Virus record (IMG/VR): IMGVR_UViG_2671180673_000006
Direction: 5' to 3' (one strand)
Source: a virus
Taxonomy: Duplodnaviria > Heunggongvirae > Uroviricota > Caudoviricetes
Length of the DNA stretch: 48,006 nucleotides
Both the position numbers and the translations under genes were made by a program. The notes beneath the pieces are model-generated. The model saw nothing but the letters and a program-made list of their open reading frames with translations. It made no database searches and was not told the origin of the DNA. This document shows positions 19,590-20,480 of this stretch, one piece after another; position 1 is the first letter of the stretch, and every line of letters starts with the position of its first letter.

Positions 19590-20480
19590 ATGAATAAAAA
19601 ATATGAACTGGTTGTTAAGGGGATAAATAATTACGGGGATAAGGTTACTGTTACTGTGAAGCCGGAAGGTGACGGGCAAGCGTCGCTGTTGTTGCCAGAT
19701 GTTGCGATTAGTCTTGACCGTACTGAAGGTGCCACGCTGGAGTTTTACGAAGCTGAGGCGAAAAAGCAGGCGAAGCAGTTTTTCATGGATGTTGCTGCCG
19801 GGTTATGTGAAGGGGATGGTCCGTTGCCGGAAAAGCGCCCCGTAATTTTAGAGGCGCAGGATGTGTTGATAACCTACAAAGGAAAACTACCGGGAAGAAT
19901 TACTTGTTCTCTGAAGATGCCGCCGTCAACACTGCGGTCAGAAAAAGATGATGTTGAATCACGTATTGAAAAACTGGAGAGCTACGTCGTTGAGCTGAAT
20001 AAGAAATGGTCGATATTGGTGCCTTCTGGCGATGAAAAGCAGTTTGCTGCGTTTGACGATTATTGTCGGAAAGTGATGAGCAGAAATCTCGCAGAGTGTT
20101 TCAGTATTCATAATGATAATTTCAGTGACCCGGAATGGGAGTGTAACCGGTCATCCTTTGTTGTATCCGGTGATGCTGGGAAAATAACCATCTCAGAAAA
20201 TGGGAAAGTAACACCTCCATCGCACCAGCACAGTGAGGAGCTCATTGAATTTGCCATTGATTACCTGAAGAACAATAAAAAGCAGGGGCTGATGAAGCGC
20301 GTTGGCCGTTGCATGGGATATCTGCAGGTAGCTGCTGAGATTGAAGCGCTGGCCAGTGGTGCTGATAAGGATGCAATTGTGCGGGAGGCTCTTCTTCGTG
20401 ATTTTAATACTCCACCCTTTAAAAAAGTGCCGGCTTACTGGCTTCATCCGGGGCTGACTTATCTTAAAGTGCGTATTTAG
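19590..20480 (+). CDS. hypothetical protein of unknown function inserted in the lysis cassette (296 aa)
   Basis: ATG at 19590 preceded by GGGGAGAG, 4 nt after the holin stop; AT-rich relative to flanks; no motif I can assign. Confidence 0.6.
   Translation: MNKKYELVVKGINNYGDKVTVTVKPEGDGQASLLLPDVAISLDRTEGATLEFYEAEAKKQAKQFFMDVAAGLCEGDGPLPEKRPVILEAQDVLITYKGKLPGRITCSLKMPPSTLRSEKDDVESRIEKLESYVVELNKKWSILVPSGDEKQFAAFDDYCRKVMSRNLAECFSIHNDNFSDPEWECNRSSFVVSGDAGKITISENGKVTPPSHQHSEELIEFAIDYLKNNKKQGLMKRVGRCMGYLQVAAEIEALASGADKDAIVREALLRDFNTPPFKKVPAYWLHPGLTYLKVRI

Follow-up and report, generated by a model that had tools for sequence, protein, structure and literature searches.

A two-module long form of the YdfR (DUF1327) family between the holin and endolysin genes of a lambdoid prophage, with a tentative link to host RNase E

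The window, by which we mean the whole stretch of 48,006 nucleotides that was analyzed, is overall a lambdoid prophage. Its ORF listing gives a 296-aa ORF with an ATG start at 19590..20480 (+). Directly upstream, a frame of 71 codons at 19370..19585 (+) encodes an S21-type class II holin of the pinholin type, which matched PF04971 (Phage_holin_2_1, E 1.9e-32) as well as the phrog_9876/phrog_20 holin profiles and possesses the dual start M1, M4 (MYQMEK...). We read 19370-19585 as the true holin CDS; Stx2_95, EH2201, and the RefSeq genome of strain AR_0013 have an annotated holin CDS of 216 bp in this position. The holin frame closes with TAA at 19583-19585, leaving a 4-nt spacer before the ATG at 19590, and a Shine-Dalgarno-like purine-rich GGGGAGAG can be read at 19575..19582 (+), within the last holin codons and 7-9 nt upstream of this ATG. 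The ORF stops at 20478-20480, 36 nt before the ATG at 20517 of a SAR-type endolysin gene (R21-like lysozyme, 20517..21050 (+); PF00959 Phage_lysozyme, E 2.8e-24; phrog_7 endolysin), whose translated N-terminus is hydrophobic and SAR-like. The cassette further includes an Rz-like i-spanin gene at 21547..22005 (+) (PF03245, E 1.8e-47; phrog_13), in which an Rz1-like lipoprotein ORF with an LVVSAC lipobox-like motif is embedded in another frame (21758-21943). An earlier sequence-only reading of this DNA had reported a 296-aa ORF 4 nt after the holin stop and before a SAR endolysin, and the coordinates, together with the purine-rich stretch upstream, were confirmed.

The endolysin and Rz genes also stand apart, and the approximately 500-bp segment at 21051-21546 is a second intercalated segment of the lysis cassette. 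It holds a 71-aa ORF (21174-21389) matching phrog_1115, to which no function is assigned, and an overlapping 75-aa ORF (21314-21541) with a strongly hydrophobic C-terminal part; RefSeq lists two hypothetical proteins at this gap in strain AR_0013. Downstream of Rz/Rz1, 22320-22643 (+) encodes a small protein that carries a lipoprotein-like signal sequence, MKRRLLLLFLLSVLAVGCSQQ, and matches the TonB C-terminal domain (PF03544, E 7e-13); this gene is AT-rich (46.9% GC) and its RefSeq name is "TonB family protein". The long + strand ORFs past the lysis genes are packaging-, head-, and tail-like by appearance. At the other end of the window, a minus-strand ORF of 428 aa (75-1361) was taken as a putative integrase. 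Upstream of the holin are genes for a 653-aa NanS-p-like sialate O-acetylesterase (16730-18691 (+); DUF1737, SASA, and DUF6645) and a DUF826 protein (19048-19293 (+)), both of which are usual contents of the Q-to-S region of Stx-type lambdoid prophages. No stx gene was present among the ORFs or neighbor annotations examined.

The GC content of the ORF is 46.1% (GC3 45.8%), compared with 56.4% (GC3 69.1%) for the holin gene, 54.3% (GC3 59.6%) for the endolysin gene, and a window mean of 52.0%. About 10% of equal-sized windows in the 48 kb are equally AT-rich. The earlier remark that the ORF is AT-richer than its neighbors (46% vs 54-56% GC) is thus correct, and the dip is real but modest, not extreme. 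A scan of 18600-22300 found no + strand promoter-like site, and no convincing terminator was found between the holin and the ORF. Because the gene lies in the operon, is closely coupled to the holin, and has no + strand promoter-like site of its own in that interval, expression with the late/lysis transcript, as previously proposed, is the natural expectation and is likely. A consensus scan also picked up a terminator-like hairpin with a 13-bp stem and a T-rich tract at 19303-19332 (+), approximately 38 nt upstream of the first ATG of the holin, which might act as an attenuator of the late operon that is read through in the presence of Q, or belong to the structure that governs the dual start of the holin.

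Profile searches identified the protein. Residues 1-100 matched Pfam DUF1327 (PF07041) with 136.4 bits against a gathering cutoff of 25 (E 4e-40, profile positions 1-88 of 93), and PHROG 1085 was matched end to end, residues 1-296 on profile positions 1-296 of 296 (E 1.2e-187); the shorter PHROGs 406, 2091, 36381, and 26186 cover the N-terminal part, the middle, or the C-terminus only. Relatives are named "YdfR family protein" in RefSeq, and NCBIfam has no model for the 296-aa protein. PHROG 1085 is the same protein family at the sequence level, but it carries no functional annotation and so adds no mechanism. Identical ORFs are present in RefSeq genomes, and cluster P0001, 99% identical to the protein, has 962 member sequences. 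The closest named comparator is YdfR of the E. coli K-12 Qin prophage (b1555, P76160), whose residues 4-73 align with the N-domain at 49% identity over 74 columns (BLASTP, E 7e-22) and which occupies the same slot, between essQ (S21-type holin) and rrrQ (lysozyme). YdfR of K-12 has 103 aa and consists of the N-domain only, whereas the window protein has approximately 220 aa more, comprising a linker, coiled-coil-like helices, and a C-terminal module. The ORF therefore represents a catalogued family, YdfR/DUF1327/PHROG 1085, in its long, two-module form, and is already known as an entity. This identity and the genomic context are the part of our explanation that we hold with high confidence. 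Published work on the family is sparse: we found one incidental mention of DUF1327, and ydfR, beyond one study discussed below (PMC13232886), appears in list entries only, such as a streptomycin overexpression screen and the y-ome list.

The protein is divided into three regions. The DUF1327 N-domain (aa 1-78; 19590..19823 (+); PF07041) is modeled as three β-strands and a long helix, with AlphaFold2 pLDDT values of 58-85 by 10-residue block, and aa 1-100 are acidic (pI approximately 5). A variable region follows (aa ~79-185; 19824..20144 (+); pLDDT 21-48), in which aa 79-117 are predicted to be disordered and heptad-like helices span aa ~118-170; it differs in length and sequence among relatives, with large indels, and gave merely weak coiled-coil-type noise in Pfam. 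The alignments then define a conserved C-module (aa 186-296; 20145..20477 (+)), modeled as a three-stranded β-meander and four helices with pLDDT 66-89 for aa 190-270, in which H214, I219, I223, L226, G239, R240, L245, Q246, A248, A249, P276, K278, W284, P287, G288, Y291, and L292 are invariant or nearly so. Two AlphaFold2 runs, with 40 and 78 sequences, gave mean pLDDT values of 52 and 58, respectively, and aa 70-181 were mostly of low confidence in them. Pfam has no family for the C-module and no fold match to it was obtained; PDB sequence and profile searches returned nothing below E 0.07, the structure search found no toxin or enzyme fold for the 296-aa protein, and a Pfam scan of 78 family members yielded DUF1327 and coiled-coil noise only. 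The claim that the protein holds no catalytic or structural motif is thus correct only in part, as DUF1327 is clear on aa 1-100. That the C-terminal domain might be an internal repeat of DUF1327 was considered and rejected, as hhalign of the N and C sub-alignments gave a probability of 0.1%.

No membrane segment or signal peptide is evident in the 296-aa protein (maximum 19-residue Kyte-Doolittle mean 0.75, GRAVY -0.40), and it is predicted to be soluble and cytoplasmic. Pairwise dN/dS values, computed by the Nei-Gojobori method against six other alleles and therefore from small counts, were 0.15-0.42 in the C-module and 0.34-0.63 in the N-domain, values that fit a translated gene under purifying selection.

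Lysis cassettes of this type had been taken to run back to back, which would make the ORF an odd insertion; comparison with other E. coli phages contradicts this. The gene order in K-12 Qin is essQ-ydfR-rrrQ-rzpQ, that is, holin, YdfR, and lysozyme, and a YdfR-family gene occupies the post-holin slot of seven phages, Stx2_95, EH2201, PhiR5_1, mEp460, Evi, H-19B, and Stx2_12E129, with Stx1a, Stx2a, and Stx2c phages among the carriers. The annotated products vary from 329 aa (Stx2_95) to 211 aa (PhiR5_1) and 114 aa (EH2201); that of mEp460 is labeled "YdfR family protein", the gene of H-19B is present but unannotated, and Stx2_12E129_yecE has a 213-aa form that consists of the C-part only and lies directly after the holin. 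The gene starts 3-5 nt past the holin stop and precedes the endolysin in all of the E. coli examples examined. We also collected from IMG/VR 80 loci with an essentially identical holin allele, 69 of which include the endolysin. Some form of the family occupied the slot in 58 of these 69 cassettes: 32 encode the N-domain only, six N and the middle, eight both N and C, 11 C without N, and one the middle only. In the remaining 11, holin and endolysin are back to back (2-5 nt), and the exact spacing of the window, 932 bp, recurs in four IMG/VR cassettes. The sample is skewed toward one holin allele and toward prophage-derived redundancy; even so, it shows the slot to be occupied as a rule in this phage group. 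Because some cassettes with the same holin allele lack any family member, the gene is dispensable for the lysis cassette.

Among 427 deposited phage records with this holin type, 100 carry the DUF1327 N-domain; in the deposited phage collection, five records match the C-part (aa 149-296) at near-full coverage. The gene was matched in part in 3049 of 5426 complete E. coli genomes, at a median of two places per genome, and the long form, with at least 80% of the gene covered, was found in 496 of the 5426; many E. coli genomes also have stand-alone C-part ORFs of 185-213 aa. The sequence-only reading had itself proposed to compare holin-endolysin junctions for presence or absence of the gene and had named constancy of the gene across the lysis cassettes of the group as a ground for refuting its own proposal. 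The occupied slot proved usual, not exceptional, and since the family fills it in Qin, the phages, and 58 of 69 cassettes, the gene is largely such a constant part, short of full constancy by the 11 back-to-back cassettes and by the 100 of 427 records with the N-domain.

Several relatives have a small ORF of 86-104 aa, convergent with the YdfR-family gene and just downstream of it (L014 2744-3040, L016 3043-3357, L003 3852-4112, L005 5881-6141, L010 5726-6019, and L012 6098-6388, all on the minus strand); in the window, the space is too short for one. The idea of a conserved antisense partner was rejected, for these ORFs are mostly unrelated to each other: one is a DUF1883 protein, and only those of PhiR5_1 and one Salmonella locus are weakly similar (E 7e-4). 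They suggest an insertion hot spot rather than a conserved partner.

We then asked how far the C-module extends. An exhaustive phmmer search with aa 101-296 against 1.84 billion cluster representatives gave 29 matches, a scan of species-representative genomes for the C-module gave three loci, and profile searches added two-domain relatives in Salmonella enterica with approximately 29% identity over approximately 90% of the length. No C-module was found outside Escherichia, Shigella, and Salmonella by the phmmer search, the profile searches, or the genome scan, and the profile searches revealed no informative domain fusions of it. The S. enterica homologs (e.g., P0156, P0153, P0188, and P0136) have the same order of N-domain, variable linker and coiled coil, and C-module; their N-domain is a divergent DUF1327-like one, with a weak PF07041 match in one member. 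As this two-domain layout is kept across the E. coli-Salmonella distance, it suggests that the long form may represent the full architecture, from which the short YdfR proteins that are common would derive as N-only versions.

The Salmonella genes likewise lie on the late operon beside lysis genes. In four independent contexts, however, the gene is located upstream of the holin, between the Q antiterminator and the holin, and not in the holin-endolysin slot; it lies within a few hundred bp of the holin, sometimes with a small ORF in between. The holins belong to three unrelated Pfam families, PF04971, PF16080, and PF05106. What is conserved is thus residence at the head of the late operon near the lysis genes and not a fixed pairing with the S21 pinholin. 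The same Q-to-YdfR-like regions of Salmonella carry toxin-antitoxin morons, namely ParE with an HTH protein and HicA/HicB, and in one S. diarizonae prophage a pertussis-toxin-S1-like ADP-ribosyltransferase gene lies between Q and the YdfR-like gene (moron regions: L005 3136-3838, L007 2834-3467, L010 3210-4019, and L012 3780-4434).

The one experimental lead to function comes from a 2026 study of K-12 YdfR (PMC13232886), in which a fragment made up of ydfR's first 72 codons was recovered from a bacterial two-hybrid library screen with RNase G as bait. The fragment gave stronger signals with RNase E constructs, full-length YdfR gave a signal with Rne1-597, and Strep-YdfR co-eluted FLAG-tagged Rne1-598; DNase-resistant nucleic acid (RNA) co-purified with YdfR. 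Overproduction of YdfR altered few transcripts and left growth unaffected, and almost no ydfR RNA-seq reads were detected in uninduced K-12 cells. The authors of that study likened such binders to T4 Srd and RapZ. The region of K-12 YdfR that interacts with RNase E matches the segment that the window protein has kept.

On this basis, the 296-aa protein may be a late modulator of host RNase E. It would be transcribed from the Q-dependent late transcript together with the holin, as the operon structure implies; its N-domain would bind RNA and/or the N-terminal, catalytic half of RNase E, as K-12 YdfR reportedly does; and in the last phase of infection it would modulate the action of RNase E on host or phage late RNA or serve as an adaptor for it. 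The coiled-coil-like region might provide oligomerization and the C-module a second binding partner. We regard this mechanism for the window protein as a possibility that is itself doubtful. Expressed as one statement, the long-form identity and context together with an RNase E modulator mechanism form a tentative explanation that falls somewhat short of an even chance. The binding data come only from a 103-aa homolog, 49% identical, in one paper and from overexpression and two-hybrid assays; nothing ties the C-module to RNA, the AlphaFold2 model is moderate (mean pLDDT 58), and the linkage to the holin could reflect a role in lysis rather than one through RNase E.

Two phage proteins are known to act in the proposed mode: T4 Srd, a stimulator of host mRNA decay that binds RNase E in its N-terminal half (Qi et al. 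2015, as cited in PMC13232886), and φKZ Dip/gp37, an inhibitor of the degradosome (PMC4980113). The likeness to Srd and Dip lies in the proposed mode only, a small phage protein that binds host RNase E during infection; comparison with Srd, Dip, RapZ, and RraA/B found no sequence or fold likeness. Moreover, Srd and Dip come from virulent phages, whereas the YdfR family comes from temperate lambdoid prophages. A more specific version, which we consider quite improbable, is a bipartite late adaptor in which DUF1327 would dock on RNase E while the C-module selects a specific RNA or protein target. Such an adaptor would tune the stability of the long late transcript, comprising lysis and, in Stx phages, toxin-region messages, and hence yield or the timing of lysis; temperate lambdoid phages would thereby have their first described RNase E adaptor or modulator, RapZ- or T4 Srd-like with an unrelated fold.

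Position next to a holin also invites comparison with lysis accessory regulators. P1 LydB, T4 RI and RIII, and the S21-71 antiholin are all encoded next to holins, and P1 LydB and T4 RIII are the functional comparators for a soluble lysis accessory. The window protein could accordingly regulate lysis timing, acting on the pinholin or the SAR endolysin as a soluble antiholin-like or lysis-accessory factor. It resembles these regulators in its holin-adjacent position and probable co-expression: the gene lies directly 3' of the holin and before the endolysin in all E. coli examples and near the holin in Salmonella too. The resemblance ends there, as no homology to LydB, RI/RIII, or the S21-71 antiholin was found, the 296-aa protein has no membrane segment or signal-anchor, and it matched no antiholin or holin family in Pfam or PHROG. 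A holin-specific partner is argued against by the three unrelated holin families in Salmonella. In E. coli, 11 of 69 cassettes with an essentially identical holin do without the gene, and N-only, C-only, and fused forms all fill the slot. In agreement with a lysis role, ydfR was a hit in a Keio-type screen for envelope integrity (Paradis-Bleau 2014, as cited in PMC13232886), but deleting ydfR could have produced this envelope phenotype through polarity on the lysozyme gene next to it, and overproduction of YdfR gave no growth phenotype (PMC13232886). On balance, we consider a lysis-timing regulator unlikely.

Still less likely is that the gene currently has no function and is a mosaic moron, largely neutral and in decay, carried along within a lysis-region recombination hot spot. 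The extreme modular variation of the family (N only, C only, fused, and several linker versions), a GC content below that of the neighbors, the unrelated antisense ORFs at the same spot in relatives, and the annotation of an identical ORF as a partial pseudogene by PGAP all agree with such decay. Against it, a cluster of 962 near-identical sequences has the frame intact, pairwise dN/dS stays below 1 with the lowest values in the C-module, start-site spacing after the holin is consistent across examples, and the two-domain layout and the invariant C-module residues are kept between E. coli and Salmonella at approximately 29% identity.

The abortive-infection, superinfection-exclusion, or lysis-released toxin-like cargo function proposed by the sequence-only reading is unsupported and highly improbable: prophage accessory genes beside lysis cassettes are sometimes defense or virulence morons, and the Salmonella relatives lie amid toxin-antitoxin and ADP-ribosyltransferase morons, but neither this protein nor 78 relatives gave a credible PADLOC match, the protein has no signal peptide and no toxin or enzyme fold, and it is unlikely to be made in the lysogen, given the lack of a nearby + strand promoter-like site and the near absence of ydfR reads in uninduced K-12, which makes a poor fit to a lysogen-expressed defense. 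In PADLOC-DB v2, the best match of the window protein was to PbeC in the coiled-coil region (E 0.016), and the 78 family members gave scattered matches at E of at least 0.00085, the best in a single member, with no family shared among them.

Returning to the YdfR long form as a candidate RNase E modulator, the protein is ordinary as a sequence object, being catalogued in Pfam, PHROGs, and RefSeq, and the earlier view of it as a candidate for an undescribed function survives in that no function has been demonstrated, not in that the family is new. It is among the commonest accessory genes of the lysis region of Stx/lambdoid prophages, and the link between its N-domain and RNase E reported in 2026 (PMC13232886) suggests a testable role in late-infection RNA turnover. 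Should this link hold in the phage context, the few phage modulators of RNase E on record would be joined by one from temperate phages. On two points, the findings reach a little further than the databases. One is the C-module as a distinct conserved domain that has neither a Pfam family nor a fold match.

The other concerns annotation. In at least two RefSeq genomes, NZ_CP032204.1 (strain AR_0013; L100 3501-4391) and NZ_CP023820.1 (strain 7/2; L101 1501-2391), PGAP lists the intact 296-aa ORF as a partial pseudogene of 336 bp ("YdfR family protein, incomplete, missing C-terminus"), and the remaining 555 bp of its coding sequence have no annotation in either. The call thus hides the C-module in these genomes. 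When translated, the AR_0013 copy is intact and identical to the window protein, and the copy of strain 7/2 has 98.8% nucleotide identity.
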